Below, in pieces: positions 3,539-62,343 of a stretch of DNA of 64,000 bases (positions are counted from its first letter, which is position 1; each line of letters begins with the position of its first letter). The notes beneath the pieces were generated by a model. It ran no database searches and had not been told where the DNA came from. It saw nothing but the letters and a program-made list of their open reading frames with translations. Position numbers and translations under genes: made by a program. The DNA is from Escherichia phage MLP3, in sequence record OK148440; one strand, written 5' to 3'.

Positions 3539-3549
3539 TAATGTATATA
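3539..3549 (+). promoter_or_regulatory. TAATGTATATA motif about 35 nt upstream of the 1481-aa gene (candidate phage-specific promoter element)
   Basis: exact motif; recurs upstream of other genes on both strands. Confidence 0.35.
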
Positions 3550-3583
3550 GGAGGTAGGACATTTTTATTTATAAGGAGACGTT

Positions 3584-6500
3584 ATGGCTAATTTAAAATC
3601 GTGGGAAGAAGCTTCCAAAGCTCCTGCGTATCTGAACGCCTCTCCAGAGCAACAGGCTCAAATGAGAGAACAATACAAGGCAGCAGGGGGCACTATTCCT
3701 GAGACTCAACCACAAGAGCAACCACAACAAGAAGAACGAGGTGCTATTGGGGAGTTTGCTCAAGGTGTGTCTAACGCTCTTCAATCAGGTGGTGCTAACA
3801 TTGCAGCTAGTGCTGCTAAAGGTTTAGGTGGGCTGGTAGAGATTGGTGAAAACTTAACTGGTTCGGAAACAAGCTATGGTAAGCGCATTCAAGAGAACTC
3901 TAAGCAATTGCTGGAAGAACGCTTATCTAAGATAGAAGATGGTTTTGGTAAAACAGCCGGTCAGTATGCTGGTGTTGCTGCTGATATTGGTTTGACAGTT
4001 GCAAACCCTGCTGTTGCTGCTGCTGTTATCGCAGCTCGTGAAACAGGTCGTGCTTATGCTGATCAAACTCCTAAAGAAGATGAAGATAAGTCAGTCTTAG
4101 ATGCTGCTCTTGTTGGTGGTGCTAACTACGCTGCTCAGAAGATCCTTCCGGGCATGACTGGTACAGCTTCTACTACTCTAGGTCGTGTAGGACAAAGCGT
4201 AGCCTCTAACGCGGTTGCTGGTGCTAAGGGTGGTGCTATTGTTGGTGCTGCTGAAGCTCAGAACAAATATGGAGATGATACTACTCTAGCTAACGTATTA
4301 GAAGGGGCTATTGAAGAGGGTGCACTCGGTGCTGCTTATGGTGGGACGATTGGTGGGGTTCATGGGTTAATAAGCCGTCCTAGCCCTCAAGTGTTTGATC
4401 GTACTCCTGAGCATGTTAAGACTGACATTGCTGCTGAAGATGAGGCTATTCGTAAAGCTGCTAACGCTGATGAACTTCGTGAAGCCTATGCTAAAGCTGA
4501 GAATGCTAATGCTGCCTCTGCTTTAAACCTTCTGGATGAAAATGGTTTCCGAATCACAGATGCAGTTGCTATGGACTCTCCTGCTGTTCAGCGTATATTA
4601 AATACAGACCAAAGTCGTGCAGAGAAGGCTGCTACGGTTCAGAAAGATAGCTCTAACGTTCCCGGTCTTAATCCTTTAGCTTCTCCTAAAAAGACTCAAG
4701 GTAAAGCTTTTGCTGACAATGAGTACAACCAGAAACAAGCTGTGGCAATGAAAGATGCAATGGCTGACTACACTAAAGATAACACCAAAGCCCTTACTGA
4801 TGTTCTAGACAACCTAGACCGAGAGTTAGTAGCTCTGAGAGCAAGTGGTGATTTTACTGGTAGTGCTATTGACATTAAAAACCGTACTCAAGCTGATCGT
4901 GATTTTATTGATGCTTATAAAACTTTTTACAGTGAAGCTAATCGTTTCAAAGCTCGTGATGGTGAAGACCTAAACAACTTCATTGATAAAGCTACTCAGT
5001 TGCAGAAGCTATCTGAAAATGTTTCTCCAGAAATGAAGAAGGCCATTGGTGGATTAAAGAAACTAAAAGGTATGCCTGAAGGTTTTAACCCTATCCAAGA
5101 TGCTTTCACTCTGAATAATACAGCTAAGTTCATGAGTAACCAAGACCGTGGTTGGACCTCTCTGACTGATGACGGTTTTCGTGAAGCTCCGGCTCCTGTG
5201 TTAGTTAAGAATCCTCTCGGTGCAGCCAAGTATGTACTTAACCGCTTTACTTCCGATCGTGCTCGTGCTCAACGTGAGAAGCAACAGTCAGCTAATAGTG
5301 AAGCTATCCGCTCTTTGGCTAGGGCTGATTTAGAAGTACAACGAGCTAGGACTCAGGCTGAAGAAGCAAGAGCAAAAATGGAAGAAGAACCAACCACAGA
5401 AGACATCAAATTCCGTACTCAAAATGATGCACCTTCCGAACCGGTTCGTGAGGAGCCTTCTGCTACTACTGTGACGGAAGAAATTCCTTCCTCTCCAGCT
5501 CCAACTGAAACACCTCTTACTGCGAGAGATTTGGTTGCTCAAAGACGTGCTCTCCAACAAGCAGAGCTTAGACGTCAAGAAGCTGAAGCTGCTCAGGCTC
5601 AAGAAAGTGCTACACCAGAACCTGAACCGCAGCAAGAAGCTCTTACAGCTAGAGAATTAGTAGCTCAGCGTAGGGCTGTAGCAGAGGCTAAGAAGCGTCA
5701 AGAGGCAGAGGAAGCAGAACGTGCTAAAGAAGCTCCTGAGGAGGCCGTAGAAGGGCCTAAAGAGAAACCTGAGCCATTACCTGCTCGTGCTCCTAAAGCT
5801 CCTGAGAAGGCTCCTGAGCCTGTTAAACCGTCACTTGGTGTAGAGCGTCTAGCTTCTATGTCAACTGCTGCTCGTCAAGCAACGAAAGACCGTGCTGATC
5901 GATTTGCTCGTTCTTTATATTCGGCTGCTGCTAAAGCTAAAGCCACTGCGGAAAACTTCCTTTCTTACAAAGGAGACCCTAAAGAGCTTATGCGTCGTAT
6001 CCGTCAGGAAGACCAAGCAAACAACACACAGCGTCATGAAGAGATGGCTAGAAACCAACTAGCTTCACAGCAAGGCATTGCTTCTGCTAAATCTCAACAT
6101 GTTCGTGCTTCTTTTGCTGATTGGGTGAAAGAACGTGGGTTGCCTTCTGATATTGCTACTAAGGCTTTACGGGCTGAAGAGAAAGGTTTAGGTGGGAACG
6201 TCACAAGTCTAGATTCACTGAAGCGAAGAGCTGAGCGTTTATATCAGAAACAAAGAGATGATGAGTTTGACCGTCTCTATCGAGAGGCTCTAGAAGAGAA
6301 TAAAGCTTTTGATAAGAGAGATACTCCTAAACTGGTAGACCAGAAGAAAGAGCTTCAGGATGAAATTGGTGCGTTGCTTGATGCTGAACCGTTACGTCCT
6401 GCTCAGAAAGATGCTATGCGTAGGATTATGGAAGACTTCGTGGAGAGTAAGTTTAAATCTTCAGAGAGAGCTGGAAGGGTTGAGGCTTTGGAAGTTGGTC

Positions 6501-8029
6501 AGATGAAGGATGTGTGGGATGGGTTTATTAATACCTATAACCGAGAAGTTAACATGTTCAACAAGGCTAACAAGAATTCTCAATACGAAGCAGCAGCTAA
6601 ACACTTGCAAGCACGTCAAGAACGTCTTGAGACGCTCCGTAACAGAGCTAAGGCTCGCAGTGATGCTAAGGCAGCCATGGAGGCTGAGAAGCAGTCCTTG
6701 GAGGCTATAGCGGCTCAGAAATCAGAGATAGAGAAGATGTTCAAAGAATTGCCTGAAAGTGTCAGAGAGGCTCAGGAAGGGCGTACTTTGAAACAGCTTG
6801 CTGCTCACCATGATAAGAACTCTCCAGTACCACCAGAGCGTTTCCGTAGTATCATTGAACGTATTCACAACGCTGAGAGTGATTACCTCGATCGCAAACG
6901 TCGTTTGACCGAAGCAGAGGAAGATGCTCGTGAAGCTAAGTGGAATAGGATGTATGAACAGGCTGAGGAAATGAACCGTAAGTTTGATATCGATGCTAGA
7001 GTGAAGAGAGATAAGGCTCTGAAGGAAGCTCAAGAACGAGAAAATGACTTAATGGCAGTTCAACGTCAGCGTGACGACATTCATAAGCGTTTGGTCAATA
7101 CTCTGGAAGAGAAGGGAGTTTCTAGAGAAGATGCTGAAGCATATGCTGGGTCTTACATGGATAATCGGTATGCTTTGTTAGAGAAACCAATGACTCCAGT
7201 GGAACATCAGAATGCTCGTGCTCGTATCGAATCTGACGTAGAGAAGTTTGTTAAGAAATACGAAACAGCTACTCCAATCGAAAGAGAGATTGCTAAAGCA
7301 ACTGGTGATGCAGATGGGAAACCTTCTGACTTAGATGCAGAAACATTAAAAGCTATCGAAGATGCTCGTAAAGTTGATTCCGATTTTAAGAAACTCTTAG
7401 ATGAAGAGAAGGAAATGGAGAAGATTCGTTCAGCTCTACCTGAAGATGAAAGATCTCAGGCGAACTCTGATATTCTGGAAAGTATTAAGAAACAGGAAGA
7501 TGATTTTGCTAGCAAAGCAGAGAAAGCTTTTATTGAAGGGAAGGACTTGCAGGAGTTAGCGAGTGTTGCAGAAGTTCTAGATAGGGTTCATGGTGCAGAC
7601 AAGGCTGGTAACAACCGTCGATTTGTACGTGCTCTACAGACTGCTGCCGAGAACAAGAAACGTTATGGGGATAATCCAGTGGCTTGGTTTAGTGCTGATG
7701 ATTACTCTGCTATTGCGAAACTTGGTGCTGCTTCGGCAGGTGGTAACAAATCTCGAGCACTTGAGAAAATCTTTGGTTCTACAGCAGAACAAGCTAAAGG
7801 GAAACTTTTAGGGCGGGATGATGTAGCTAAGATTAGACGTGTGATTGAAGCGAATCCCAATGTTAAGATTCCTTCTTACAAGACAACTACTCGACAAGAG
7901 TACATGCAGTTCTTGGAGAAGTATAATGACGAGGGAGAGTTGAAAGTCAAACGTGGTTCTCTGTCTGACAAGTTGGAGAGAAGTAAGCGTCAAGCTAAAC
8001 TCCGTGTTAGAGTTCGAGCTAAGGAGTAA
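3584..8029 (+). CDS. large virion protein (1481 aa), candidate internal core / DNA-ejection protein
   Basis: ATG with AAGGAG; long Ala-rich and coiled-coil segments; largest ORF; last plus-strand gene before terminator. Confidence 0.6.
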   Translation: MANLKSWEEASKAPAYLNASPEQQAQMREQYKAAGGTIPETQPQEQPQQEERGAIGEFAQGVSNALQSGGANIAASAAKGLGGLVEIGENLTGSETSYGKRIQENSKQLLEERLSKIEDGFGKTAGQYAGVAADIGLTVANPAVAAAVIAARETGRAYADQTPKEDEDKSVLDAALVGGANYAAQKILPGMTGTASTTLGRVGQSVASNAVAGAKGGAIVGAAEAQNKYGDDTTLANVLEGAIEEGALGAAYGGTIGGVHGLISRPSPQVFDRTPEHVKTDIAAEDEAIRKAANADELREAYAKAENANAASALNLLDENGFRITDAVAMDSPAVQRILNTDQSRAEKAATVQKDSSNVPGLNPLASPKKTQGKAFADNEYNQKQAVAMKDAMADYTKDNTKALTDVLDNLDRELVALRASGDFTGSAIDIKNRTQADRDFIDAYKTFYSEANRFKARDGEDLNNFIDKATQLQKLSENVSPEMKKAIGGLKKLKGMPEGFNPIQDAFTLNNTAKFMSNQDRGWTSLTDDGFREAPAPVLVKNPLGAAKYVLNRFTSDRARAQREKQQSANSEAIRSLARADLEVQRARTQAEEARAKMEEEPTTEDIKFRTQNDAPSEPVREEPSATTVTEEIPSSPAPTETPLTARDLVAQRRALQQAELRRQEAEAAQAQESATPEPEPQQEALTARELVAQRRAVAEAKKRQEAEEAERAKEAPEEAVEGPKEKPEPLPARAPKAPEKAPEPVKPSLGVERLASMSTAARQATKDRADRFARSLYSAAAKAKATAENFLSYKGDPKELMRRIRQEDQANNTQRHEEMARNQLASQQGIASAKSQHVRASFADWVKERGLPSDIATKALRAEEKGLGGNVTSLDSLKRRAERLYQKQRDDEFDRLYREALEENKAFDKRDTPKLVDQKKELQDEIGALLDAEPLRPAQKDAMRRIMEDFVESKFKSSERAGRVEALEVGQMKDVWDGFINTYNREVNMFNKANKNSQYEAAAKHLQARQERLETLRNRAKARSDAKAAMEAEKQSLEAIAAQKSEIEKMFKELPESVREAQEGRTLKQLAAHHDKNSPVPPERFRSIIERIHNAESDYLDRKRRLTEAEEDAREAKWNRMYEQAEEMNRKFDIDARVKRDKALKEAQERENDLMAVQRQRDDIHKRLVNTLEEKGVSREDAEAYAGSYMDNRYALLEKPMTPVEHQNARARIESDVEKFVKKYETATPIEREIAKATGDADGKPSDLDAETLKAIEDARKVDSDFKKLLDEEKEMEKIRSALPEDERSQANSDILESIKKQEDDFASKAEKAFIEGKDLQELASVAEVLDRVHGADKAGNNRRFVRALQTAAENKKRYGDNPVAWFSADDYSAIAKLGAASAGGNKSRALEKIFGSTAEQAKGKLLGRDDVAKIRRVIEANPNVKIPSYKTTTRQEYMQFLEKYNDEGELKVKRGSLSDKLERSKRQAKLRVRVRAKE

Positions 8030-8036
8030 ACAAGAA

Positions 8037-8077
8037 AAGCCCCCAACCTGTAAAAAGGAAGGGGGCTTCTTTATTTC
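8037..8077 (+). terminator. rho-independent terminator after the 1481-aa gene
   Basis: AAGCCCCC / GGGGGCTT 8-bp stem, 16-nt loop, then CTTTATTTC. Confidence 0.6.
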
Positions 8078-8146
8078 TAGATGTTAGAATCCATCAAATT
8101 CATCATACATCCCAATTTTCTTCTTCAAAGTCAATCATAAAACCTC

Positions 8147-8991: not shown

Positions 8992-9001
8992 TATAATATC
9001 C

Positions 9002-9823: not shown

Positions 9824-10412
9824 AGAGTTCTCTCCGTGTCCGTACAACAATCCAGTTTAAATAATCTACTGCATCTTCTACAGTAGAATTATTCGCTAGG
9901 TAGTATGTATTTCTCTGACTACCTTCAATGTAGGAACGAGAATCTCCTTTAAAATCACAACCTTCACGAATCACCTGAATTACCTGAACATGGAAATGTT
10001 TCTCTAGTTCTTCAACTTCGGCTTTGAACCCACCATCAGAGAAGACGATAACATCATTCTGTGATGGGATACGTTGTTGAATACTGCTAACAGCAAGTTT
10101 ACCCATGCAGGTCTCACCAAACATAGGCTTCAGGTAATTCTCGCTAGTTGCAATCATCAAGTCTCGAACTGACTTACCGTCCCATTCAGGACGGCTATGT
10201 TCTTTCCACTCACGATCGTTGTACAGCTCCATGAACTCATAAAGAGGTAGACCTAATGCAGCAGCAGCCACTCGATACATAGGCTCCTTAAAAGCCTTTA
10301 CATGAGGCCTAAACTCGGTGTTACCAAGTGTTTTCTCTAACCAAGAATTAGCGATTGTATCTTTACCACAACCCGGTGGTCCATTCAGAATTACTACTAA
10401 TGGTTTACTCAT
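9816..10412 (-). CDS. P-loop nucleotide kinase (dNMP kinase-like)
   Basis: Walker A GPPGCGKDT near N-terminus; about 200 aa. Confidence 0.5.
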   Translation of the reverse strand: MSKPLVVILNGPPGCGKDTIANSWLEKTLGNTEFRPHVKAFKEPMYRVAAAALGLPLYEFMELYNDREWKEHSRPEWDGKSVRDLMIATSENYLKPMFGETCMGKLAVSSIQQRIPSQNDVIVFSDGGFKAEVEELEKHFHVQVIQVIREGCDFKGDSRSYIEGSQRNTYYLANNSTVEDAVDYLNWIVVRTRRELYV

Positions 10413-11062
10413 TATTGAATCATCCCTTGAAGATCTTCTTTATCAAAGTGCTTCTCTACTACCGCTTCATACAGATCACGATTCTCTGAATAACGACGAT
10501 AGAAGGTTCCGTGTGAAATTCCCAACTCTTGCTGGATGTGATCATGTGGGATGCCGAGAAAGAGCATTGAGAACATGCTTGCCATCTTACGGTTTTCCAT
10601 AATGTCACTCAGGTCTTGGAAGAAGAAAAAGATTCTAGATTCCAAGAACGGGTCTCCAGTAGAATCATGCTTATCCATCGCAATCTCTAAAGGACTTTCC
10701 CATGAATTCATCTCAGGAGGTCTAAACATATCAGCCTCTGGAATAGAGTAGATACGTCGGTCTCCAACTGTCTGGCGATTAGAACGAATCGACCAGATGA
10801 TATTCTTGACACGATAAGTCATGTGCTCAATATCTTTTTCATCAGTGAGCAGAAGTTCTTCTTGCTTTGCAAACACAAAACGCCAAGCGTTCAGTAATAC
10901 TTCCTGAGCAACATCCTCTGCCTCGTGATAGTCTTTAATGTCATACATAAAATACTTATGCACAACTTTCCAGTTCTCTCGATAAAATTCATCGAAGGTT
11001 GGATAATATTTAATAGGAATGCCATGAATACGATAGCGTGTGGGTGTTGTCTTTTTCTTCAT
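10412..11062 (-). CDS. sigma-70 family (ECF-like) sigma factor
   Basis: region-2-like [15 protein letters not shown] and region-4-like [13 protein letters not shown] segments. Confidence 0.5.
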
Positions 11063-11858: not shown

Positions 11859-12599
11859 TTAGAATGGGCTATCATCTTCTTCAAAGGTTGATTGCGGCTC
11901 TTCATTAATGGTAGGGATGCTTGGAGTAGCATCTTTCTGTTCAGTATCAGAAGCTTTAGTAACTTCACGACCAGCCAGAGGGATATTCTTAGCATCGTTA
12001 GCTTGAGTCAAGAGGTTACGTTGGAATGGGAAGATTGCTTGATAAGCAGCTAAGTTAGCGTCAGTCTCAGCATACGGTTCGAAGAAGATCAACTCACTAC
12101 GAGGAGCACCTACCGCGTCACGATATTTAGTCGGGATTGGAGTGATGCTTTTAATGGAGTTTTTCTTCTCACCAGCTTTATTGGTGTAAGAGTTAACCAG
12201 AATGTTAACAGGCTGACCTAACAGCATATCTTTAAACCAACCCAAATCACCTTTCAGTGCTTGAACACTTGGGTCGATCATTTTAATCAGATTTAGAATA
12301 CCAGAGTTCTTAGCTCGTGGGTTTACATCGAAAGATTTAAACTGGCAAGCAGGACGAGGGTCCAGAGGTTTGCCTTCATTATCAGTCCCTGTTGCATCCA
12401 CGCCAATCAGTTCAAAAGCCAAGTCCATACGGAAAGCTGGGTTCTTAGGAGTAACTGCTTTAGTCTTAGGGTCAATCCAAGGGTCACGATTGTGAACACC
12501 TAAACCTACAACACGAACAATACGTGCTTCGTACTCACCATCAGGGATTACATCGTAGTTGGATTTACGGGATACAGACAGTTCAGGGATCATAGACAT
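11859..12599 (-). CDS. ssDNA-binding protein-like, acidic C-terminal tail
   Basis: C-terminus FEEDDSPF resembles the SSB acidic tip ending in Phe; sits in replication block. Confidence 0.45.
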   Translation of the reverse strand: MSMIPELSVSRKSNYDVIPDGEYEARIVRVVGLGVHNRDPWIDPKTKAVTPKNPAFRMDLAFELIGVDATGTDNEGKPLDPRPACQFKSFDVNPRAKNSGILNLIKMIDPSVQALKGDLGWFKDMLLGQPVNILVNSYTNKAGEKKNSIKSITPIPTKYRDAVGAPRSELIFFEPYAETDANLAAYQAIFPFQRNLLTQANDAKNIPLAGREVTKASDTEQKDATPSIPTINEEPQSTFEEDDSPF

Positions 12600-12656
12600 A
12601 TTAATATTTCCTTATATAAATTTAAGATTGTTGCTCTCTTTGAGCGGTTTGTATAC

Positions 12657-12667
12657 TATATACATTA
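12657..12667 (-). promoter_or_regulatory. TAATGTATATA motif about 58 nt upstream of SSB-like gene
   Basis: exact motif on minus strand. Confidence 0.35.
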
Positions 12668-12729
12668 CACTTATACAGATAAGGTTCTATTATACTATAA
12701 CCTTTTTGGTAGTAGATAATGACAAGTAG

Positions 12730-12740
12730 TAATGTATATA
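12730..12740 (+). promoter_or_regulatory. TAATGTATATA motif, plus orientation, no downstream plus-strand ORF
   Basis: exact motif, divergent to the copy at 12657-12667. Confidence 0.3.
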
Positions 12741-13145
12741 TGGTATAGCTAGTAAAGCTATTGCAGGCTTGTATATTGGGCAATTCATAGAATCCCTTGC
12801 AAGTACCGAAGGGCAGGAGCCACCTGCGAGATAAAAATAGAGAATTAAGGAAATCCTTGATTTAGGTTGTAGGGACTCCTAGGGACTTTGATTCTCTATT
12901 TAAAAGAATATTAATTACTTACTACCTAAATAATTAACTAACTTACTTAAACCAAACTCAAGAATAATAGATAAAAAGATTATTCCTAAGAAAGCTAAAA
13001 AGTAAAGGATATAAGTTACCATTCAAGTAAACCTTTAAAGTTAGTTTGTTCTACTATCCTCTGATAATGAAGATTAGAATCAGCTTGTTTCTTTAACATC
13101 TCATTATATTTATCTCTGATAGAGTCTTTATAAACTACAGGTTCT

Positions 13146-18880: not shown

Positions 18881-19198
18881 TCAACTTGAGCTTAAAGCTC
18901 CTTTGCGACCGCCTGCTGATTTTCCAGCACGATCTCCACTTTTGCCGCCGTTCGAGCGATTTCGAGAGACTGATTCAACACGTAAGTTACTTGACGCATT
19001 AGAACCTCCCGACTTGATTGATCGTTTGTGTCCAACATCTTTACCTCGGACAGCAGCTTTTCCATCGCGCTTTTCAACGATGCGACGTGCACGGTGGCGC
19101 TGAGCATCTCCGCTCTTGCTACCAACGCCGGTCTCACCCCTTGCGATTGCAGTTCTTCGTTCTTGTGCATAATCACGTTTCGCCTTATCGGTCATCAT
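18881..19198 (-). CDS. highly basic low-complexity protein (R/K/G/S-rich), possible nucleic-acid-binding
   Basis: ATG ATG with strong AAGGAG RBS; fully overlaps an alternative-frame ORF. Confidence 0.4.
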   Translation of the reverse strand: MMTDKAKRDYAQERRTAIARGETGVGSKSGDAQRHRARRIVEKRDGKAAVRGKDVGHKRSIKSGGSNASSNLRVESVSRNRSNGGKSGDRAGKSAGGRKGALSSS

Positions 19199-19242
19199 AA
19201 CTCCTTAATATATCAGTGTACACTAAGGAGTATACATTATGT

Positions 19243-22705: not shown

Positions 22706-23281
22706 TTAGTAAGACACGTCACCACTGGAGTGGGACATGTTGCTCTTGACGAAGTAACAGAACTTGCCAAGACCTTCATTAATTTCTTGAAGCATACTCT
22801 GATCAACTGGATAGGTGCACAAGTCTGAATCAAACTCGTCCATCTTCTCAATGATACACATAAGAGTCATGCACATGTCGGAAAGCATACCGTCCATGTC
22901 GAGATCAGCGTTACCTTCTCGGAACCAAGCGTGACCTAAATAGTTACTAGCAGTGGCATCCACCTTAACACAATGGAAGCGCATACGCTCTGCTATTCGG
23001 TCGCCTGCCTCACGGGCATAATCTTCTAGTTCATCGAACATACCATGAACACCTTGGAAACCAGCTCCAGAGACGTTCCAGTGGTAGTTCTTTGCTTTGA
23101 TGTGTAGAAGTTCAAGGTTAGCCTGCACACCACAAAGAATGTGCTCTAGGCTGTTACTGCTAATCAGTTTATTCATTCCCTCAAGACGAGAGATAGAAGA
23201 ATCAGTAGTAGAGAATGGATTACTAGAACCCACTCTTGTTAGTTCTGGTAAGTCGAAGACATTATTATGCATTAGGTGCAT
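22706..23281 (-). CDS. Dps-like ferritin-fold protein
   Basis: YHWNVSGAGFQGVHGMFDELEDYAREAGDRIAER resembles the Dps signature. Confidence 0.65.
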   Translation of the reverse strand: MHLMHNNVFDLPELTRVGSSNPFSTTDSSISRLEGMNKLISSNSLEHILCGVQANLELLHIKAKNYHWNVSGAGFQGVHGMFDELEDYAREAGDRIAERMRFHCVKVDATASNYLGHAWFREGNADLDMDGMLSDMCMTLMCIIEKMDEFDSDLCTYPVDQSMLQEINEGLGKFCYFVKSNMSHSSGDVSY

Positions 23282-23612
23282 CCCCTTCTAAGTTAGTTGA
23301 ATTAGCTACATTACGAGCAATGTTATCCATGACCTGCTGTGTAATAACAATGCAATTCTGAGGGTCTACCGATTTAGAACGCCCCATCTCAGGGTCATAG
23401 ACTTTGACTCGCTTGGCTGTTGAGCCAGTAACTTGCAACACTTTGAGAAGATAACCTTGGTTTCCAATAGACCATGCAACAACATCACGATTCTTGATAT
23501 AACGACCAAGCATATCACGATGATAGAACTGCTGCATAACTTTAGCTTTGCTAATCTCTTCAGATGGCGGGGCCACTTTACTCAAATCTAACATAACTCT
23601 CTCCTGTTTCAT
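23265..23612 (-). CDS. hypothetical protein
   Basis: ATG with GGAGAG RBS. Confidence 0.45.
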   Translation of the reverse strand: MKQERVMLDLSKVAPPSEEISKAKVMQQFYHRDMLGRYIKNRDVVAWSIGNQGYLLKVLQVTGSTAKRVKVYDPEMGRSKSVDPQNCIVITQQVMDNIARNVANSTNLEGDAPNA

Positions 23613-23628
23613 ACAATATTCTTATACT

Positions 23629-23640
23629 GTATATACATTT
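23629..23640 (-). promoter_or_regulatory. AAATGTATATAC motif (TAATGTATATA-like) upstream of 23265-23612 gene
   Basis: near-exact motif about 17 nt before RBS. Confidence 0.3.
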
Positions 23641-23664
23641 GAGAGTTATCATATCTACTACCAA

Positions 23665-29932: not shown

Positions 29933-30118
29933 TTATTCTACTTCGAAGTGTTTGATCACACCAGTCAGTACATCAGATTGGAACGTACCTACTAGCTCTG
30001 TACCTCGGAAAAAGTTAACACTTGTTCCAAGTGATTCAAAGCGATCTGCTTGAATGTCCAGAGATTGAATATTTCCTTCTGCTGACATTGTACGAAACAT
30101 GATTGTGTATTTATTCAC
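29933..30118 (-). CDS. hypothetical small protein
   Basis: ORF only. Confidence 0.35.
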   Translation of the reverse strand: MNKYTIMFRTMSAEGNIQSLDIQADRFESLGTSVNFFRGTELVGTFQSDVLTGVIKHFEVE

Positions 30119-30357
30119 AGACTTGTTACTCCCTTATCTGCTTGTGCAATTGCGATGATACGCTCAGCACATTCCATTGAATATTTATCACCTCGTTTGA
30201 GGAAGGTGATGATTGCAGAGAACTGATTACCAATCATTCTCTTATTTGTGATACCGAACTCTTCACAGAGTTGGTTGATAGCTTTACGAGAGCCTACAAT
30301 CAGAGGCTCTTTTTCTTCGGTCATTCCACGGCTGATCAAATCTTCGATAGACAACAT
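30115..30357 (-). CDS. hypothetical small protein
   Basis: ATG. Confidence 0.4.
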   Translation of the reverse strand: MLSIEDLISRGMTEEKEPLIVGSRKAINQLCEEFGITNKRMIGNQFSAIITFLKRGDKYSMECAERIIAIAQADKGVTSL

Positions 30358-35912: not shown

Positions 35913-36719
35913 TTATACAATCTGGAGTTTAGAGGAGAATTTATCCGCTTCTTTAACATCGTTACTGTTGATGATGTTGTGAAGCTTTTCAATTGGAAGG
36001 CGAGAGTGAAGTGACATCAATACTTCCATATCACAGCCTTGAACAACCTTATCAACTTGCTCATAAACAAACTTGCGGGTTGACTTCTCGCCAATCCAGA
36101 AGTTAGAAAGAGAACGATATTCAATACCGTAATCTTTGTAGCGAATGGCAGAAGCCTTTCCGTATAACTCTTTACGACGAGTATCTTTATCCATGATCAC
36201 AGCTGGCAAGGACAGGAAGTAATCACACAACACACCCAACATCATTTGAGTCTGACGACTAATTTCCAGCGTACCAGTGACGCCAAGGTGAACATGACCG
36301 CCAGCAGTACGCAGACCTTTGTCTGTCGCTACTGGAGATGGGTTTTTCTGACCAGTGAAGGCGTTGAAATCAGGAGTACAACCAAATACAAAGGCTGACG
36401 GATGGAAAGATTCCAGCTCTTCTGAAGTGAACACATGAGAGCTAATCCCAAGTGCTGCCTCCATGCCACGTTCATTGAGAACTTTGTTAGTCAGATCAAT
36501 ACCACGCTGAATGTTATCATTAAACGCTTCAAACCCTTTCTGTGGGTTAATATCGAACTCGGCCAGAACGTTGTCTTCTTGAAGACGAACATCAGGGGCC
36601 AGATCAATTTTGTTGTCTTTAGAGCAGCCCAGCTTACCAGCCACAGAGGTGATAATACCAGAAGCAGTACGAACAAACATTTCAGGGTCAGAACCAATAA
36701 GGAAAGCACGCTTAGTCAT
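35913..36719 (-). CDS. amidoligase-like protein (second copy, divergent)
   Basis: FLIGSDPEMF and AGGHVHLGV motifs; ATG at 36719 with GGAG RBS (table start GTG at 36764). Confidence 0.45.
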   Translation of the reverse strand: MTKRAFLIGSDPEMFVRTASGIITSVAGKLGCSKDNKIDLAPDVRLQEDNVLAEFDINPQKGFEAFNDNIQRGIDLTNKVLNERGMEAALGISSHVFTSEELESFHPSAFVFGCTPDFNAFTGQKNPSPVATDKGLRTAGGHVHLGVTGTLEISRQTQMMLGVLCDYFLSLPAVIMDKDTRRKELYGKASAIRYKDYGIEYRSLSNFWIGEKSTRKFVYEQVDKVVQGCDMEVLMSLHSRLPIEKLHNIINSNDVKEADKFSSKLQIV

Positions 36720-42787: not shown

Positions 42788-42863
42788 TGGTGCACCCTAC
42801 AGGACTCGAACCTGTAACCAACGACTTAGAAGGTCGCTGCTCTGTCCGTTGAGCTAAGGGTGC
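42788..42863 (-). tRNA. tRNA-Arg, anticodon UCU
   Basis: hand-folded cloverleaf: acceptor GCACCCU/AGGGUGC, D-stem GCUC/GAGC, anticodon loop CUUCUAA, T-arm ACAGG-UUCGAGU-CCUGU, encoded CCA. Confidence 0.85.
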
Positions 42864-51528: not shown

Positions 51529-51530
51529 CG

Positions 51531-52683: not shown

Positions 52684-52711
52684 ACTATATATTAAAGGAA
52701 AAACCTGTCAA
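52684..52711 (-). promoter_or_regulatory. sigma70-like promoter (TTGACA-16 nt-TATAGT) upstream of 51776-52639 gene
   Basis: minus-strand hexamers about 45 nt before ATG. Confidence 0.4.
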
Positions 52712-54854: not shown

Positions 54855-54880
54855 GCCTCCTCTCGTGGGAGGCTTTTTGT
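54855..54880 (+). terminator. rho-independent terminator
   Basis: GCCTCC-TCTCGTG-GGAGGC followed by T5. Confidence 0.5.
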
Positions 54881-54908
54881 TATAACGATAATGTAGAAGG
54901 AGTATAAG

Positions 54909-55376
54909 ATGTTTGGAGAAAAAGGAGAACTCACGCCTGCACAGGTAGCTGAGATTACAGGAAGACTGCCCGGAGTAACGGAAGAACTTGAATCCAAGGG
55001 CATGGAACCAAGCACAGGGAAGTTTACTAAAGGTAATAAATTTGGACGTCCCAAAGGTAGTAGAGGTAAATTGACACAGCTCATGCTCGATCGTGTTGCT
55101 GCTAGTCATCTGTCTCCCGATGAAGTGTTGATTCAGATTTATGAAGATCCAAATATTCCACCCGATCTTAGATTCAAGGCTGCAAGTAAAGTCGCTGATC
55201 TGGTATATCCTAAGGCAGCTTCTGTTGAGGTTAAGATTGAGGAAGAGAATGTAATCAATGAAGAATCACTGAACGCACAGATTCGAGACTTCTTGACTGG
55301 TGCACTGAAAGTGGATGTGCTACCTCCAGAGGACTCTGAGGACGCTGAAAAGGAGGAGGAAGCGGACGAGAGTTAA
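54909..55376 (+). CDS. terminase small subunit candidate
   Basis: 155-aa acidic C-terminal protein immediately upstream of large terminase; positional inference only. Confidence 0.4.
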   Translation: MFGEKGELTPAQVAEITGRLPGVTEELESKGMEPSTGKFTKGNKFGRPKGSRGKLTQLMLDRVAASHLSPDEVLIQIYEDPNIPPDLRFKAASKVADLVYPKAASVEVKIEEENVINEESLNAQIRDFLTGALKVDVLPPEDSEDAEKEEEADES

Positions 55377-56984: not shown

Positions 56985-57081
56985 AACATGGATGCCGGAG
57001 TCTAAGTTAACCGGATATGTAGGGGAGGCATAGTCCTCCCTTTAGTAATTCCTTCCAAGCTATCACCGAGGGAGAGATTAG

Positions 57082-59325
57082 ATGGCTAAGAAGAAATTTA
57101 GTGAAGATGTTTTGGATGAATTACGCGTTGACCTTCAACGTCGATTCAATTATGCTCAAGGATATGTAGACTTAGCTGTAAAAGGCTATGCTCGTGAGGC
57201 TTGGGAATACTTCTATGGGAACCTTCCTGCTCCAGTTACTGCTGGTAGTTCTAGTTGGGTAGACCGTACAGTATGGGAATCAGTGAACGGTACGCTCCAA
57301 GATATCATTAACGTGTTCTGTTCTGGTGACGAAGCGGTAACTTTCGTAGCCGATAACCAAGAAGATAGTGATGCTGCTGACGTAGCCACTAAACTTGTCA
57401 ACCAAATTTTGTTACGTGATAATCCGGGATACAATATTATCTCTTCAGCGGCACAAGAGTGTCTGGTTACACGTAACTCTTTTATTAAATATTATTGGGA
57501 TGAACAGACTTCTACTCAAACAGAAGAAGCAGAGGGTGTTCCTCCGGAAGCTTTGGCTGCATATGTCCAAGGTTTAGAAGCTGGTGGGCTTCAAGATTTA
57601 GAAATCTTTACCACTGACAATGAAGATGGTACAGTGGACGTTAAAGTAACTTACAAACAAACAGTAAAACGTGTTAAAGTAGAATATGTTCCTTCAGAAC
57701 AGATTTTTGTTGACGAACACGCTACCTCTTTTGCAGATGCTCAGTACTTCTGTCATCGCACACGTAAATCTAAAGAAGATCTGGTTGCTATGGGCTTCCC
57801 TAAAGACGAAATTGAAGCTTTTAACGATTGGACGGATATGATGGACACTACCCAATCGACTGTTGCTTGGTCACGTACTGACTGGCGTCAGGATATAGAT
57901 TCAGATATCGGTGTAGACACTGATGATATCGCTTCTATGGTTTGGGTTTACGAGCATTACATCCGTACTGGTGTACTGGATAAGAATAAAGAAGCAAAAC
58001 TCTATCAAGTTATTCAAGCAGGTGAGCATATTCTCAGTTGTGAAGAAGTAACTAGCATTCCTTTTGTAACATTCTGCCCTTATCCTATTCCGGGTTCATT
58101 CTATGGACAATCTGTTTATGATATCACCAAAGATATTCAGGATTTGCGTACCGCTTTGGTTCGTGGTTATATCGATAACGTAAACAATGCTAACTATGGT
58201 CGATATAAGGCGCTTGTAGGCGCGTATGACCGTCGTTCTTTGCTAGACAACCGTCCGGGCGGTGTAGTAGAAATGGAGCGTCAGGATGCGATTGATCTCT
58301 TCCCATACCATAATCTACCTCAAGGTATCGATGGCTTGCTGGGAATGTCTGATGAGTTGAAAGAAACTCGTACTGGTGTTACTAAGCTTGGTATGGGTAT
58401 TAACCCTGATGTGTTTAAGAATGATAACGCATATGCAACTGTTGGATTGATGATGAATGCTGCTCAGAACCGTCTCCGTATGGTCTGTCGTAACATTGCT
58501 CACAACGGTATGGTTGAATTGATGCGTGGTATTTATAATTTAGTCCGAGAAAATGGTGAGGTTCCTTTACAAGTACAAACCCCTCGTGGTATGGTTCAGG
58601 TTCATCCTAAACAACTGCCTGCTCGTCACAATCTACAAGTTGTTGTAGCTATCTCTCCTAGCGAGAAATCAGAACGTGCACAGAAACTCATTAGTCTGAA
58701 GCAATTAATTGCTGCTGATGCTCAGTTAGCACCTCTGTTTACTCTGGAGCAAGATCGTTACATGACTGCACAGATCTTCGAGTTGATGGGAATTAAAGAC
58801 ACTCACAAATACTTAATGCCTCTGGAACAGTATCAACCGCCAGAACCTTCTCCGATGGAAATCCTCCAGCTTGAGATGACTAAAGCACAGGTTGAGAACG
58901 TACAGGCTTCTTCTCAGAAGATGATTGCTGATGCATTCGACCAGCGTGAACGTACTACGTTTGAACAGCAGAAAGCTGCGGACGAGTTCAGCTTACGTCA
59001 AGAAGAACTGCAATTTAAGCAAGAGAATGCTGCTGATCAGATGACTTTGGAGAATCGTAAAGAAGACAACAGTGCTACACTTGAACAGGCTAAGCACAAG
59101 TTGGCTCTGCTCCAGCAACAGGTCCGTCAGTATGAATCTGTACTTAAAGAATTGCAGATGACTCTTAATCATCAGGTCGATGTTGAGAAAGTTGCAAATC
59201 AGGCTAAAATTCAAGATAAGACTTTGGAACTCCAAAAGAAAGAAGCAAATGAAACTAAGAAAGAACAGCAAAGTTCAATCAAAGATTCACGGATTCCTAA
59301 CCGTCGTCTTGGTAGTAGAAAATAA
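57082..59325 (+). CDS. portal protein
   Basis: 747 aa; follows terminase; C-terminal coiled-coil, charged tail. Confidence 0.7.
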   Translation: MAKKKFSEDVLDELRVDLQRRFNYAQGYVDLAVKGYAREAWEYFYGNLPAPVTAGSSSWVDRTVWESVNGTLQDIINVFCSGDEAVTFVADNQEDSDAADVATKLVNQILLRDNPGYNIISSAAQECLVTRNSFIKYYWDEQTSTQTEEAEGVPPEALAAYVQGLEAGGLQDLEIFTTDNEDGTVDVKVTYKQTVKRVKVEYVPSEQIFVDEHATSFADAQYFCHRTRKSKEDLVAMGFPKDEIEAFNDWTDMMDTTQSTVAWSRTDWRQDIDSDIGVDTDDIASMVWVYEHYIRTGVLDKNKEAKLYQVIQAGEHILSCEEVTSIPFVTFCPYPIPGSFYGQSVYDITKDIQDLRTALVRGYIDNVNNANYGRYKALVGAYDRRSLLDNRPGGVVEMERQDAIDLFPYHNLPQGIDGLLGMSDELKETRTGVTKLGMGINPDVFKNDNAYATVGLMMNAAQNRLRMVCRNIAHNGMVELMRGIYNLVRENGEVPLQVQTPRGMVQVHPKQLPARHNLQVVVAISPSEKSERAQKLISLKQLIAADAQLAPLFTLEQDRYMTAQIFELMGIKDTHKYLMPLEQYQPPEPSPMEILQLEMTKAQVENVQASSQKMIADAFDQRERTTFEQQKAADEFSLRQEELQFKQENAADQMTLENRKEDNSATLEQAKHKLALLQQQVRQYESVLKELQMTLNHQVDVEKVANQAKIQDKTLELQKKEANETKKEQQSSIKDSRIPNRRLGSRK

Positions 59326-59334
59326 GGATACTGA

Positions 59335-59571
59335 ATGAATACAAGACAGCAATTCAATAAAGAGCACGCCGCCGCTTTGGCGGCTCTCAATCACAACGGC
59401 ATTCTTGACGCAGCATTAGAGGCATTAAAAGAAACCCTCATGAGAGATATTGTATTAACCGAGGCTCATGAGAATAAGAAACGCGAAGAGTGTTATCAAA
59501 AGTATAAAATGGTTGGTAGCTTAAAAGAGGTCATAAAAGCTGCTATCAATAATGCAGGAGATATTTCCTAA
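59335..59571 (+). CDS. hypothetical head-module protein
   Basis: ATG; between portal and scaffold. Confidence 0.45.
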   Translation: MNTRQQFNKEHAAALAALNHNGILDAALEALKETLMRDIVLTEAHENKKREECYQKYKMVGSLKEVIKAAINNAGDIS

Positions 59572-60653
59572 TGGCAAATGATTATATTGACCCGAACGAT
59601 TTTAAATCTTTCCTCCAACTAGACGACTTAAAAGGCTCCTTCAAAGAAGAGCTTAGTCAATTAGAATCAGAACGTGAACCAGAAGTGAACATTGATGATG
59701 AATTCCCAGAACAGTCTGAGACTTTTGATCTTGATGCTTCCGACCTTCTCGGTGATGACGATACGTTAGCGTTCGAAGATGAAGATGGTTGGGAAGATCG
59801 TGAAGAGGAAGGCGAAGAAGAAGAGGAAGAGTCTGAGTTCTCTGATGAAGACGGTGAAGAAGATGATTCCGGTGAAGCAGATCACGATGAAGCTGCTAAC
59901 AGCGATGAAGATGGCGAAGAAGGTGAAGTCTTTGACGTAGATTATGAAACTGTTATCACCCTTCCTGATGGTCGTGAGATGACTATTGAAGAGTTGTCTA
60001 ATGGCTATTTGACTGGTGCAGAAATGTCCGAACGTGAGACTACTTTGCAGCGTCATGTTGAAGCTTTTGAAGAACGTGTTGCTGGCTTGGGGGATGTATT
60101 AGAACTAGCTGCCCTAGAAGCAGACCGAGTAATTGAAGATTACAACGGTTTTGATTGGGACAAACTTGCACAAGAAGATCCTCAAGCTTATGTAGAAAAC
60201 AAACGTTTCTTAGAAAAATATACAGCTCGTCGCCAACAGCTTGAACAAGCTCAGCTTAAAATCAAGCAAGAAGCACTAGCAAAAGAACAACAGCTCTTCC
60301 AAGCTAAATGTACTGAGTGTGTAAGCGTACTTAAACGTGAGATTCCTAATTGGGATGACAACTTGTATCAGAACCTGATGCAGTATGCAATCGACTTAGG
60401 TGCTACAGAAGAAGAAGTGCTGAAAGAGAACCGTCCGTCAATCTTCCTAGCTCTACACAAAGCATACCAGTTTGATAAAGGTAAGCAGCAGGTGATGGCT
60501 AAGATTAAACGTCCCGGCTCTCCACGCAAGGTTGTGAAGTCCGATGCTTCTAAGTCTCGTTCTTCCAATACGCCAGACAACGCTAAGGTTGCCAAGGCAT
60601 TCTCAGAGGGTCGTATTCGTCACGAAGACGCATTTAAGTATCTCGTAGATTAA
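59571..60653 (+). CDS. scaffolding protein candidate
   Basis: highly acidic N-terminal half, coiled-coil C-terminal half, immediately upstream of capsid gene. Confidence 0.55.
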   Translation: MANDYIDPNDFKSFLQLDDLKGSFKEELSQLESEREPEVNIDDEFPEQSETFDLDASDLLGDDDTLAFEDEDGWEDREEEGEEEEEESEFSDEDGEEDDSGEADHDEAANSDEDGEEGEVFDVDYETVITLPDGREMTIEELSNGYLTGAEMSERETTLQRHVEAFEERVAGLGDVLELAALEADRVIEDYNGFDWDKLAQEDPQAYVENKRFLEKYTARRQQLEQAQLKIKQEALAKEQQLFQAKCTECVSVLKREIPNWDDNLYQNLMQYAIDLGATEEEVLKENRPSIFLALHKAYQFDKGKQQVMAKIKRPGSPRKVVKSDASKSRSSNTPDNAKVAKAFSEGRIRHEDAFKYLVD

Positions 60654-60693
60654 TCGACAAATTTATTTTTAATAGTATAGGAGCTAATATAAC

Positions 60694-61749
60694 ATGGCAA
60701 ATCCAACTTTATTTGTATCTTACGACCAGAATGGTAAAAAACTTTCTTTTGCTAACTGGATTTCTGTCCTGTCTCCGCAAGACACTCCGTTTGTGTCTAT
60801 GACTGGTAAAGAGTCTATCAATCAGACTATTTTCAGCTGGCAGACCGATGCTCTGGCGAGCGTAGATGCTAACAACGCCCACGTCGAAGGCTCTCGTGCT
60901 GAAGACGGCGAAATGAAACCGACTGTAATCAAGTCCAACGTTACTCAGATCCTGCGTAAAGTTGTTCGTGTTTCTGATACTGCTAACACCACCGCTAACT
61001 ACGGTCGTGGTCGTGAACTGATGTATCAGCTGGAGAAGAAAGGTAAAGAGATTAAACGTGACCTCGAGAAAATCCTGCTGTCCGGTCAGGCTCGTACCGA
61101 TATTCTGGCAGACCAGTATCTGACCAACTCTGCAACTGATCCTGCTGTTGTAGGTCAGAATGATACCTCAGCTGCTCGTAAGACTGGTGCTTTCCAGTTC
61201 CTGTGTGCACACAATGGTGTTGCTGGTGGTGTTGTTAAGAAAGAAGATGGTCCTGCTGACCCGGATACTGGTGCAGTAACTGTTAAAGTTGCACAGAATG
61301 CTTCTAACCCGACTACTAACATCGGTTTTGATGAAGCTGATATCTTTGATATGACTCTGCAATTGTATACCGCTGGTTCTGAAGCAGACATCATCATGAT
61401 TAACCCTGCTCACGCTAGTATCTTTGCTAAGCTTCAGGAAAACTCTGTTGGTTCTCGTCAGCGTATCTTTGAGAACACCAAACAGTTCATCTATGAAGTT
61501 AACAGCATCACTGACCCGCTGGGCCAGAGCTATAAAATCATCGTTAACCGTTGGATGCCTGCTGATGCAGTTTACTTCTTCCGCAGCTCTGACTGGACTC
61601 AGATGGTTCTTCGTGCTCCGAAACGTACTGAACTGGCTAAAGATGGTTCTTACGAGAAGTGGATGATTGAAATGGAAGTTGGTCTGCGTCACCGCAACCC
61701 GTATGCTTCCGGCGTTCTGTTCACTGCTGCGGGAAAGGTGGCGGCGTAA
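60694..61749 (+). CDS. major capsid protein
   Basis: 351 aa after scaffold with strong TAGGAG RBS; position and size typical. Confidence 0.7.
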   Translation: MANPTLFVSYDQNGKKLSFANWISVLSPQDTPFVSMTGKESINQTIFSWQTDALASVDANNAHVEGSRAEDGEMKPTVIKSNVTQILRKVVRVSDTANTTANYGRGRELMYQLEKKGKEIKRDLEKILLSGQARTDILADQYLTNSATDPAVVGQNDTSAARKTGAFQFLCAHNGVAGGVVKKEDGPADPDTGAVTVKVAQNASNPTTNIGFDEADIFDMTLQLYTAGSEADIIMINPAHASIFAKLQENSVGSRQRIFENTKQFIYEVNSITDPLGQSYKIIVNRWMPADAVYFFRSSDWTQMVLRAPKRTELAKDGSYEKWMIEMEVGLRHRNPYASGVLFTAAGKVAA

Positions 61750-61760
61750 CAGTAGACAGT

Positions 61761-62273
61761 GTGACTGTTAGCCCTGCGTCTTTAGCAAGCCTAGAGACAG
61801 GGGCTACTCGGCAGTTCACTGCAAGCGCGGAGAAAAGTGATGGTTCTACCGAAACAACTGGCTTTACTTGGTCAGTGACAGGAGGTGGTTCTATCACTCA
61901 GTCGGGTTTGTATACTGCTCCGAGTGCGTCTCAATCCACTGATGTATCCATTACTGCAACTTTAGAAGGTGTTTCTGGTACAGCAACCATTTCTGAAATT
62001 GTTGCTCCTGCTCCTACTATTGTAGCTAAGGGTCCAATTACGGGTAAAACTGGTGGTTCTTCCACTAACTTCACTACCATGTTTACTGTAACTAATTCTA
62101 CTGCTGCGGATTACACGTTTGTTGTAACCCCTACAGAAGCTGGTACAGTAAGCGCCGCTGGTGCGTTAACCTTAGATGCTGCTGCAAGTGGCGAAGTTAC
62201 TGTTCAAGCAAGTTTGACAGCTGACCCGTCCATCAATGCAACATGCACTTTTACTGGTGTAACACCTGCTTAA
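61761..62273 (+). CDS. Ig-like domain ORF, probably expressed as a -1 frameshift C-terminal extension of the capsid protein
   Basis: Thr/Ser/Gly-rich beta-type sequence; no ATG or RBS (GTG only); frame open from 61671; slippery G_GGA_AAG at 61731-61737. Confidence 0.5.
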   Translation: MTVSPASLASLETGATRQFTASAEKSDGSTETTGFTWSVTGGGSITQSGLYTAPSASQSTDVSITATLEGVSGTATISEIVAPAPTIVAKGPITGKTGGSSTNFTTMFTVTNSTAADYTFVVTPTEAGTVSAAGALTLDAAASGEVTVQASLTADPSINATCTFTGVTPA

Positions 62274-62280
62274 AACTAGA

Positions 62281-62304
62281 CCCTGCCTTCGGGCGGGGTT
62301 TTTT
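62281..62304 (+). terminator. rho-independent terminator after capsid module
   Basis: CCCTGCC-TTCG-GGCGGGG followed by T6. Confidence 0.65.
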
Positions 62305-62332
62305 CGTTTTAAGACCTATACAAGCTAGTGTG

Positions 62333-62343
62333 TAATGTATATT
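62333..62343 (+). promoter_or_regulatory. TAATGTATATT motif upstream of HNH gene
   Basis: motif about 32 nt before ATG, directly after terminator. Confidence 0.35.

Follow-up and report, generated by a model that had tools for sequence, protein, structure and literature searches.

The DNA analyzed here, a 64,000-nucleotide stretch of Escherichia phage MLP3 (record OK148440; "the window"), comes from a phiEco32-like coliphage of the Gordonclarkvirinae that is 98% identical to vB_EcoP-101114UKE3 and has SU7 (genus Suseptimavirus) among its closest relatives. It encodes homologues of the phiEco32 sigma factor gp36 and of gp79, and it carries repeated copies of a short motif, flanked by proteins with 82 to 99% identity to their phiEco32 counterparts. 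The features are as follows.

10412-11062 (-): phage sigma factor, homologue of phiEco32 gp36 (80% identity, 216 aa)
30115-30357 (-): homologue of phiEco32 gp79 (76% identity over 80 aa)
54889-54897 (+): P6 orthologue, late; TAATGTAGA, near-identical to phiEco32 1677-1685, ahead of gene 6
62333-62343 (+): P13 orthologue, late; TAATGTATATT, context identical to phiEco32 9101 and MN05 5358
62310-62318 (+): upstream word TAAGACCTA of P13, -38 to -30, including A-34
3539-3549 (+): P26 orthologue, late; TAATGTATATA, orthologous to phiEco32 26014 and MN05 22456
3516-3524 (+): upstream word TAAGACCTA of P26, -38 to -30; word and register common to P13
3526-3560 (+): terminator-like hairpin of 15 bp followed by a T-run, with the P26 -10 element in its apical part
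12657-12667 (-): P40 orthologue, middle; TAATGTATATA; gene-40 homologue at 11859-12599
19229-19239 (-): P58 orthologue, middle; TAATGTATACT, leader identical to phiEco32 42944 and MN05 38465
23630-23640 (-): P68 orthologue, middle; AAATGTATATA; gene at 23265-23612
23652-23662 (-): -35 element GGTAGTAGATA of P68, -37 to -27, including G-37 and A-34
12730-12740 (+): seventh site; TAATGTATATA; phiEco32 36704, MN05 31886; predicted start ~12745
12708-12718 (+): -35 element GGTAGTAGATA of the seventh site, -37 to -27; word and 12-nt spacing as in P68
43948-43958, 35296-35304, and 26257-26265 (all -): intragenic copies, not conserved in phiEco32 or MN05

A scan of the window, of the kind proposed in an earlier sequence-only reading, places the frequency of the motif above expectation: the published degenerate core WAATGTAKA has 10 matches in the window versus 3.18 expected, and TAATGTATATA with at most one mismatch has 7 versus 1.5 expected, counts that none of 100 shuffles attained in either case. 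Seven of the 10 core matches are intergenic (binomial P of ~6e-5, with ~13% of the window intergenic), a status called by orthology with the phiEco32 annotation; a cruder ORF-based call had treated 12659, 12730, and 62333 as coding on the strength of spurious ORFs and was overruled by that orthology. All seven lie at orthologous positions in phiEco32 and MN05, and AATGTA and the A at -7 are invariant across them in the three genomes. The three intragenic copies equal the number expected by chance. A match at 23625-23635 (+) arises only because the TATATA core of the 23630-23640 (-) site is palindromic and so can be read from the opposite strand as well. Every copy quoted in the sequence-only reading was found at its coordinates, but the list was incomplete, since the full copy at 19229-19239 (-), cATAATGTATACt, had been overlooked. 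The sequence that it described as a partial copy at 54888-54895 is present, but the label does not hold: TAATGTAGA is a natural variant of the validated phiEco32 P6.

Six orthologues of phiEco32 gp36 promoters

Six gp36 promoters (P6, P13, P26, P40, P58, and P68) are described for phiEco32 in PMC8948821 and PMC4281155, which cite Pavlova et al. 2012 and give the consensus tAATGTAtA with a start site 6 to 8 bp downstream. The evidence consists of primer extension together with transcription in vitro (PMC8948821, PMC4281155) and a 2025 cryo-EM open complex (PMC12276001). Positional and sequence comparisons (tblastn, flanking identity) identify six window sites as orthologues of the promoters for phiEco32 genes 6, 13, 26, 40, 58, and 68, and these sites match the published six exactly, including the variants given in PMC8948821 (TAATGTAgA for P6 and aAATGTATA for P68). 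The repeated TAATGTATA motif is thus the already characterized promoter element of the phiEco32-like phage sigma factor. Because the six sites are the published gp36 promoters, the proposal that the motif serves a phage ECF-like sigma factor was correct, and it was already known.

Each of the three late sites is associated with a terminator-like structure. P6 lies directly 3' of a terminator (54855-54873), with a predicted start at ~54904, ~5 nt ahead of the ATG at 54909, and the downstream gp6 homologue has 93% identity. P13 (predicted start at 62348) follows a terminator at 62278-62301, in agreement with the sequence-only reading, which had also named the HNH gene downstream (62375-62887; Pfam HNH_3, E = 1e-11); this gene is an insertion, and the gene-13 homologue comes after it. 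P26 (predicted start at ~3554) serves the 1481-aa virion gene at 3584-8029, whose product is 82% identical to gp26. The P26 hairpin stem differs between the window and phiEco32 at five positions, all five of which still pair (G-U or Watson-Crick). Transcripts from P26 would begin within the 3' arm of this hairpin and therefore lack it.

The middle sites are all on the minus strand. P40 has a predicted start at ~12652, and its gene-40 homologue, annotated as an ssDNA-binding protein in some relatives, has no Pfam family and matches only unknown-function families in PHROGs. A weak "DUF2815 RNA" match in the gene-40 leader (12585-12670) was rejected; it aligns the ribosome-binding region only, without a hairpin. 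P58 (predicted start at ~19224) is 33 nt upstream of a 105-aa gene (18881-19198) whose product is 90% identical to gp58, and the predicted start of P68 is at ~23625. Upstream of the -10-like elements, A-34 is the sole invariant position (7/7 sites in the window and likewise in phiEco32 and in MN05), and the cryo-EM structure shows contact with this base. G-37 is found in the window at P68, the seventh site, P6, and P58, whereas P13, P26, and P40 carry a G at -35 instead.

The phage sigma factor and its proposed mode of action

The sigma factor predicted in the window matches chain F of PDB entry 9m7y (E = 1e-117) and has a weak Pfam match to Sigma70_r2. It keeps all ten DNA-contact residues (E79, H80, Y83, R84, W90, S91, S94, N95, and Y186/R187), which bears out the sequence-only reading in attributing the motif to a sigma factor of the phage. 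In the cryo-EM open complex on P68, gp36 reads A-14, A-13, T-12, and G-11 of AATGTA, and its C-terminal domain contacts G-37 and A-34 (PMC12276001). The phiEco32 promoters are transcribed in vitro by E. coli core enzyme plus gp36, with stimulation by gp79 (PMC8948821, PMC12276001), which inhibits the sigma-70 holoenzyme and activates the gp36 holoenzyme; P26 has been used for such in vitro assays (PMC12276001).

The motif is thus very probably the -10-like element (AATGTA at -14 to -9; extended form tAATGTAtA) of phiEco32-type middle and late promoters. The computations here show that the motif is present, enriched, and orthologous and that the sigma factor and its contact residues are conserved, while the biochemistry comes from the phiEco32 publications and is transferred to MLP3 by homology. 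On this model, the host sigma-70 holoenzyme would transcribe the early genes, leading to production of the gp36 and gp79 homologues, and the latter would displace sigma-70 region 4 and stabilize the phage sigma factor on the core enzyme of the host. This sigma factor would then use its N-terminal domain to read A-14, A-13, T-12, and G-11 and to melt the DNA from -11, and its C-terminal domain would touch the -35 region (A-34, G-37), with RNA synthesis predicted to begin 6 to 8 bp past the 9-mer. P68, P58, and P40 (-) would serve the middle genes, which act in replication and nucleotide metabolism, and P6, P13, and P26 (+), each at or just after a terminator, would drive late genes for packaging and virion structure. 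The seventh copy may also be active, giving a non-coding transcript from near 12745.

MLP3 and phiEco32 share the consensus, the P6 and P68 variants, the downstream genes, gp79, and the A-34 and G-37 contacts, and their sigma factors (80% identity) have identical contact residues. They differ in the HNH endonuclease gene inserted between P13 and gene 13 in MLP3 and in the -35 regions of P40 and P58. In Salmonella phage 7-11, too, a phage-encoded ECF-like sigma factor steers the core polymerase of the host toward a small set of highly conserved promoters, which occupy equivalent positions in the genome (PMC8948821). However, its late promoters (GTAAtg-N16-aCTA, read by SaPh711_gp47) have an overtly bipartite motif of another sequence, the sigma factors share only ~15% identity, and 7-11 has neither a gp79 homologue nor a middle class (PMC8948821). 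A comparison with sigma appropriation by T4 AsiA/MotA has been drawn (PMC12276001): in both systems, reading of a new upstream element in the middle phase is made possible by a small phage protein that displaces sigma-70 region 4 or remodels it, but T4 keeps sigma-70 and adds MotA, whereas the phiEco32 type replaces sigma-70 with a gp79-stabilized phage sigma factor.

The sequence-only reading had allowed for a -10 variant. In that case, host sigma-70 promoters would have the motif as their -10 element, in variant or extended form, and the unmodified host holoenzyme would transcribe the genes. The motif is indeed AT-rich and TATA-like, P58 overlaps a weak match (CTGAAA-16-TATACT, 9/12), and sigma-70 promoters were predicted close to the middle-gene sites in the publication on the SU10 genome (PMC4281155). 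Nonetheless, sigma-70 consensus scans of the window gave counts at shuffle level (33 versus 36.2 and 26 versus 27.0), with no match at the sites save the weak P58 overlap (P68 is outside the scanned regions). Recognition of a -10 element by sigma-70 requires A at -11. The sites instead carry an invariant G at -11 and an A at -7, a departure from the consensus TTGACA-N16-18-TATAAT, in which these positions are A and T, respectively. In phiEco32, moreover, it is the gp36 holoenzyme that uses these promoters, and transcription by sigma-70 is shut off by gp79 (PMC8948821, PMC12276001), all of which makes a host promoter highly improbable. That the repeats represent a chance AT-rich word, or the binding site of a regulator other than a sigma factor, is scarcely credible. 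The frequency of the three intragenic copies is indeed close to that expected by chance, but the shuffles, none of which attained the observed count, and the orthologous positions of the seven intergenic copies in three genomes refute such an origin, and in the structure it is the sigma factor that reads the motif (PMC12276001).

A seventh site and the region downstream of it

The remaining intergenic copy, 12730-12740 (+), was noted in the sequence-only reading as divergent from P40 and without a same-strand downstream ORF, as is indeed the case. It points against all neighboring genes, and it is also present in phiEco32 itself. The site has every sequence feature of a gp36 promoter except a position upstream of a phiEco32-type gene; it departs from the other six in this respect because no such gene lies downstream. 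Its -35 word GGTAGTAGATA has only two exact copies in the window, at P68 and here. Both its -35 and -10 elements are invariant in 13 aligned phages, in which the sequence of the 12-nt spacer varies. When IMG/VR and JGI metagenome contigs were scanned with GGTAGTAGATA-N10-14-AATGTATA for diverged relatives, none were found; the phage-derived matches belong to the same phage group, and the spacer is 12 nt in every one of them. Matches in which the spacing differed derive from unrelated contigs and resemble chance occurrences. P40 and the seventh site are 62 to 73 nt apart, or ~260 nt in myPSH2311, where an insertion of ~190 nt separates the two; there, the seventh site keeps G-37 and A-34 and still adjoins the downstream block. 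This variation in distance argues against a fixed composite architecture.

The seventh site is not among the six gp36 promoters named in the accessible literature (PMC8948821, PMC4281155). One published computational promoter search covered the gene-direction strand only and would therefore miss it.

The region downstream has the following layout.

12745-12906 (+): candidate non-coding transcript or cis element
12746-12762: 5' hairpin, followed by a variable middle module
12798-12906: near-invariant block, ending in a long hairpin

Predicted folding of 12745-12906 is more stable on the plus strand (minimum free energy of -46.8 kcal/mol, z = -2.2) than on the minus strand (-36.7, z = -1.6). Two compensatory pairs are found in the 5' hairpin, and 10 G-U pairs in the region are valid on the plus strand only; covariation is limited to this one short hairpin because the rest of the candidate RNA is invariant. 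The downstream block is 99% identical to phiEco32, versus 81% for the gene-40 coding sequence, and 98 of 98 records contain it, in each case unannotated. The terminator scan places no plus-strand intrinsic terminator after the seventh site before 17253. At the gathering threshold, Rfam 15 reports only a tRNA-Arg (42791-42863) in the whole window, and a search of 12550-13050 with E values up to 10 gave chance-level matches only (E > 1). The longest perfect complementarity of the candidate RNA to sense transcripts of the window is 10 nt, the chance level for trans targets, and the 162-nt region has no match across 5,426 complete E. coli genomes. Searches of the literature turned up no relevant work on Kuravirus transcriptomes or non-coding RNAs.

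From these sequence features, it is quite possible, if short of probable, that phiEco32-like phages have a seventh gp36-dependent promoter (12708-12740, +; phiEco32 ~36682-36714) that would yield a non-coding RNA of ~160 nt or an origin-activating transcript. Phage-specific promoters that serve no gene are known at T7 phiOL and phiOR and at the T4 middle-promoter origins oriF and oriG, which lie beside AT-rich DNA in or near replication functions and provide precedents for origin promoters. The seventh site would resemble these, although the region downstream of it looks like structured RNA. A role confined to activating or priming DNA replication at an origin beside an AT-rich unwinding region, with no RNA gene, is unlikely. 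Such a role would suit a promoter that faces away from all genes and adjoins the gene for an ssDNA-binding-like protein in the replication module, and it would suit a pair of direct repeats (TAGGGACT-CC-TAGGGACT, both one G shorter in 4 of the 13 aligned phages) within a conserved block next to a stretch of 78% A+T (12906-13022). However, that stretch also codes for a conserved 35-aa gene (PHROG 24970), the plus-strand-specific G-U pairs and the compensated 5' hairpin suit an RNA product better, and no mapped origin is known for these phages. It is also rather doubtful that the seventh copy is inactive, such that the block would simply terminate the upstream operon on the minus strand and the motif would be a sigma-binding decoy or relic. 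The minus strand does have a terminator-like 11-bp perfect stem (AAAUAGAGAAU/AUUCUCUAUUU) followed by UUUUUAUCU shortly ahead of P40, an arrangement also seen at P6 and P13, and the experimentally reported gp36 promoters number only six (PMC8948821). Against a relic stands the invariance of the 12-nt and 11-nt elements around a freely varying spacer in 13 phages that represent three genera.

Significance for phiEco32-like phages

The motif finding is a rediscovery of a well-studied regulon and in itself adds nothing to its biology, although it indicates that a reading of sequence alone can pick out the promoters of a phage-encoded sigma factor. For annotation, it allows the sigma factor and its cofactor to be assigned in the MLP3 genome, along with the transcription units of the middle and late classes, and the three late promoters are shown to be coupled to terminators. 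The orphan copy, if active, would give the model system a further output, either a non-coding product or a transcript at an origin; because that system already offers both an in vitro transcription assay and a cryo-EM structure, a direct test would be quick. If the proposal is true, one product of the phage sigma regulon would be non-coding and without annotation in 98 deposited genomes.

Motif copies and the gp36 promoter system

The sequence-only reading had described a recurrent motif, TAATGTATATA, upstream of genes on both strands, and a scan of the window confirms it and places it above chance. Seven copies with at most one mismatch are found versus 1.5 expected, a count that 0/100 dinucleotide-preserving shuffles attain; for the published degenerate core, WAATGTAKA, the count is 10 versus 3.18 expected (0/100 shuffles reach 10). 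Seven of the 10 core copies are intergenic. The other three (26257, 35296, and 43950; all minus strand) lie within genes, are not conserved in phiEco32 or MN05, and equal the number predicted by chance. All of the coordinates in that reading are correct, and a full copy that it overlooked lies at 19229-19239 (-). A candidate at 23625-23635 (+) was rejected as a separate copy; it is the palindromic TATATA of the 23630-23640 (-) site, read on the opposite strand.

The closest record is Escherichia phage vB_EcoP-101114UKE3 (98.2% identity, 100% query cover; megablast, first 20 kb), and the close ones among the 115 phage records matched by these 20 kb are all Gordonclarkvirinae, the phiEco32-like podophages. 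The GC content is 39 to 45%, and the gene arrangement is the phiEco32 layout, with minus-strand genes between ~8.1 and 52.7 kb and plus-strand genes in the remainder. A tRNA-Arg gene (anticodon TCT) at 42788-42863 (-) is likewise present in phiEco32 and MN05. A near-consensus sigma-70 promoter at 52684-52711 (-) (TTGACA-16-TATAGT, 11/12) heads the minus-strand early gene cluster, in agreement with the published early-promoter location in phiEco32.

The phiEco32 sigma factor gp36 is described in PMC8948821 as a distant sigma-70-family protein. As summarized there and in PMC4281155, both citing Pavlova et al. 2012, its promoters share a single element, tAATGTAtA, with start sites 6 to 8 bp downstream, and precede genes 6, 13, and 26 (late) and 40, 58, and 68 (middle) (PMC8948821, including supplementary table; PMC4281155). 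We listed every AATGTA in both the window and the phiEco32 genome and compared the flanks. Six sites correspond to the published promoters, which are numbered by downstream gene.

Window orthologues of the gp36 promoters
54890 (+), P6 orthologue; flanks near-identical to phiEco32; g variant, TAATGTAGA
62334 (+), P13 orthologue; flanks near-identical to phiEco32
3540 (+), P26 orthologue; flanks near-identical to phiEco32
12666 (-), P40 orthologue; flanks near-identical to phiEco32
19238 (-), P58 orthologue; flanks near-identical to phiEco32
23639 (-), P68 orthologue; flanks near-identical to phiEco32; a variant, AAATGTATA

The genes downstream of these six sites are phiEco32 orthologues (82 to 99% protein identity), and all seven sites, including an orphan copy that faces no gene, are also found in phage MN05. 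The sigma factor gene at 10412-11062 (-) encodes a protein with 80% identity to gp36, which matches PDB 9m7y chain F at E=1e-117 and Sigma70_r2 weakly; it keeps 10/10 reported DNA-contact residues, and the clamp-helix-binding acidic residues are likewise conserved. A homologue (76% identity) of the co-activator gp79, which displaces sigma-70 region 4 and stabilizes gp36 (PMC12276001), is encoded at 30115-30357 (-). The earlier interpretation of the motif as a promoter element for a phage sigma factor is supported, the factor being of the phiEco32 type.

Upstream contacts and the sigma-70 alternative

In the 2025 cryo-EM open complex on P68, AATGTA occupies -14 to -9; gp36 uses its N-terminal domain to read A-14, A-13, T-12, and G-11 and its C-terminal domain to contact G-37 and A-34, with Y186 touching the A-34 partner thymine (PMC12276001). 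When the seven promoters from three genomes (window, phiEco32, and MN05) were aligned by AATGTA, A at -34 alone proved invariant upstream of the -10 element. G-37 is carried by P68, the seventh site, P6, and P58, while TAAGACCTA at -38 to -30 is common to P13 and P26 and TTGGTAGTAGATA at -39 to -27 to P68 and the seventh site. The invariant A-34, G-37, and these shared words thus extend the agreement with the structural model past the 9-mer itself.

The motif had alternatively been proposed as a -10 variant, which would make the sites host sigma-70 promoters. Among the sites in the scanned regions, only P58 overlaps a sigma-70-type match, a weak one (9/12), and sigma-70 consensus scans returned no more matches than shuffles did. 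Furthermore, G at -11 is invariant among the sites and is not compatible with sigma-70 -10 recognition. The host sigma-70 alternative is not supported.

Late promoters and their terminators

Every late promoter (P6, P13, and P26) is placed at a terminator. Two of these are as follows.
54855-54873 (+), terminator before P6; hairpin and T-run
62278-62301 (+), terminator before P13; hairpin and T-run

At P26, a 15-bp hairpin (3526-3560, +) holds the -10 element in its apical part and is followed by a T-run, ATTTTTATTT; pairing is preserved at 5/5 stem positions where phiEco32 differs from the window. Upstream transcripts would meet this terminator-like hairpin, and P26 transcripts (start, ~3554) would begin within its 3' arm and so escape it.

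Transcription from P6 is predicted to start at ~54904, past the GGAG of the gene-6 homologue and only ~5 nt short of its annotated ATG (54889-54911, +); the transcript would be almost leaderless for this gene. The PHROG profile match of the 155-aa ORF begins only at residue 16. At gene 13, the start of the homologue is the exact insertion point of an HNH endonuclease gene (62375-62887, +; Pfam HNH_3, E=1e-11), which has captured P13 together with the ribosome-binding site and the five initial codons (MAMPD). Gene 13 begins anew at the junction (ATG 62877), where it has a GGAGG of its own and a recoded N terminus (MLPDVQY; in phiEco32, MAMPDVQY), an arrangement that looks like the insertion of a homing endonuclease.

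The orphan site and its conserved downstream region

The orphan copy at 12730-12740 (+), divergent from P40, is not among the six gp36 promoters listed in PMC8948821. One published computational re-analysis would have missed it, since only the gene-direction strand was scanned. Across 13 aligned phages from three genera, the gene-40/41 intergenic region keeps TGGTAGTAGATA and TAATGTATATA invariant and the sequence between them varies freely, which is the sequence signature of a two-element promoter. Register and spacing are the same as in P68, including G-37 and A-34, and the spacer is 12 nt in every phage-derived match from IMG/VR and metagenome scans. The distance to P40 varies from 62 to 73 nt; an insertion in myPSH2311 sets the two sites ~260 nt apart, with the orphan site still joined to its downstream region and G-37 and A-34 retained. 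Most likely, the orphan copy is an active seventh gp36 promoter.

The myPSH2311 insertion (L011, ~420-610; ~190 nt) carries a small minus-strand ORF between P40 and the orphan promoter, with a start codon overlapping the orphan -35 element, there GGTAGTATATC. The arrangement is the same in ES17, EcM-vB1, and EcK-vB.

As the sequence-only reading had indicated, no conserved ORF was found on the plus strand after the orphan site; the only small ORFs there are broken by a 1-nt indel in SU7-type sequences of the 13-phage alignment. From the predicted start (~12745), a 5' hairpin shows compensatory changes (ATAGCT/AGCTAT, AGAGTT/AACTCT, ATAGTT/AACTAT, and ATAGA/TCTAT) and a G-U variant whose pairing is valid on the plus strand only. 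A middle module follows, replaced by a different hairpin in some phages, and then a near-invariant block of ~100 nt (12798-12906) with 99% identity in phiEco32 and 95% in MN05, the adjacent gene-40 coding sequence being at 81%. The block is found in 98/98 matching records and annotated in 0/98. Folding energy is -46.8 kcal/mol (z -2.2) on the plus strand versus -36.7 kcal/mol (z -1.6) on the minus strand, and G-U on the plus strand makes up 10/51 consensus pairs. The sequences are too similar to offer more than thin covariation evidence for the region.

Searches with this region found no Rfam match and nothing related in E. coli genomes, and its complementarity to phage mRNAs is not notable; no plus-strand intrinsic terminator follows it. 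On the minus strand, the upstream operon could have its terminator in an outer 11-bp stem and the UUUUUAUCU after it; the block may thus serve both strands. A 35-aa hydrophobic ORF at 12915-13022 (-), a phi32_41 homologue (PHROG 24970; 89% protein identity to phiEco32 gp41), is antisense to any orphan-promoter transcript. With 10 G versus 16 C in 117 nt, the plus strand there is G-poor, which would suit a Rho-utilization region.

The gp36 promoter system is already known in detail; judging from papers citing Pavlova et al. 2012, the orphan promoter and the conserved non-coding region downstream may be the only new element. Two direct repeats, TAGGGACT, both lack one G in 4/13 aligned phages, and a 78% A+T stretch comes after the block. 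The orphan product would be a structured non-coding RNA or, alternatively, a transcript activating a nearby replication origin, the latter idea drawing on the repeats, the A+T stretch, and the precedents for origin-linked promoters in T7 and T4.
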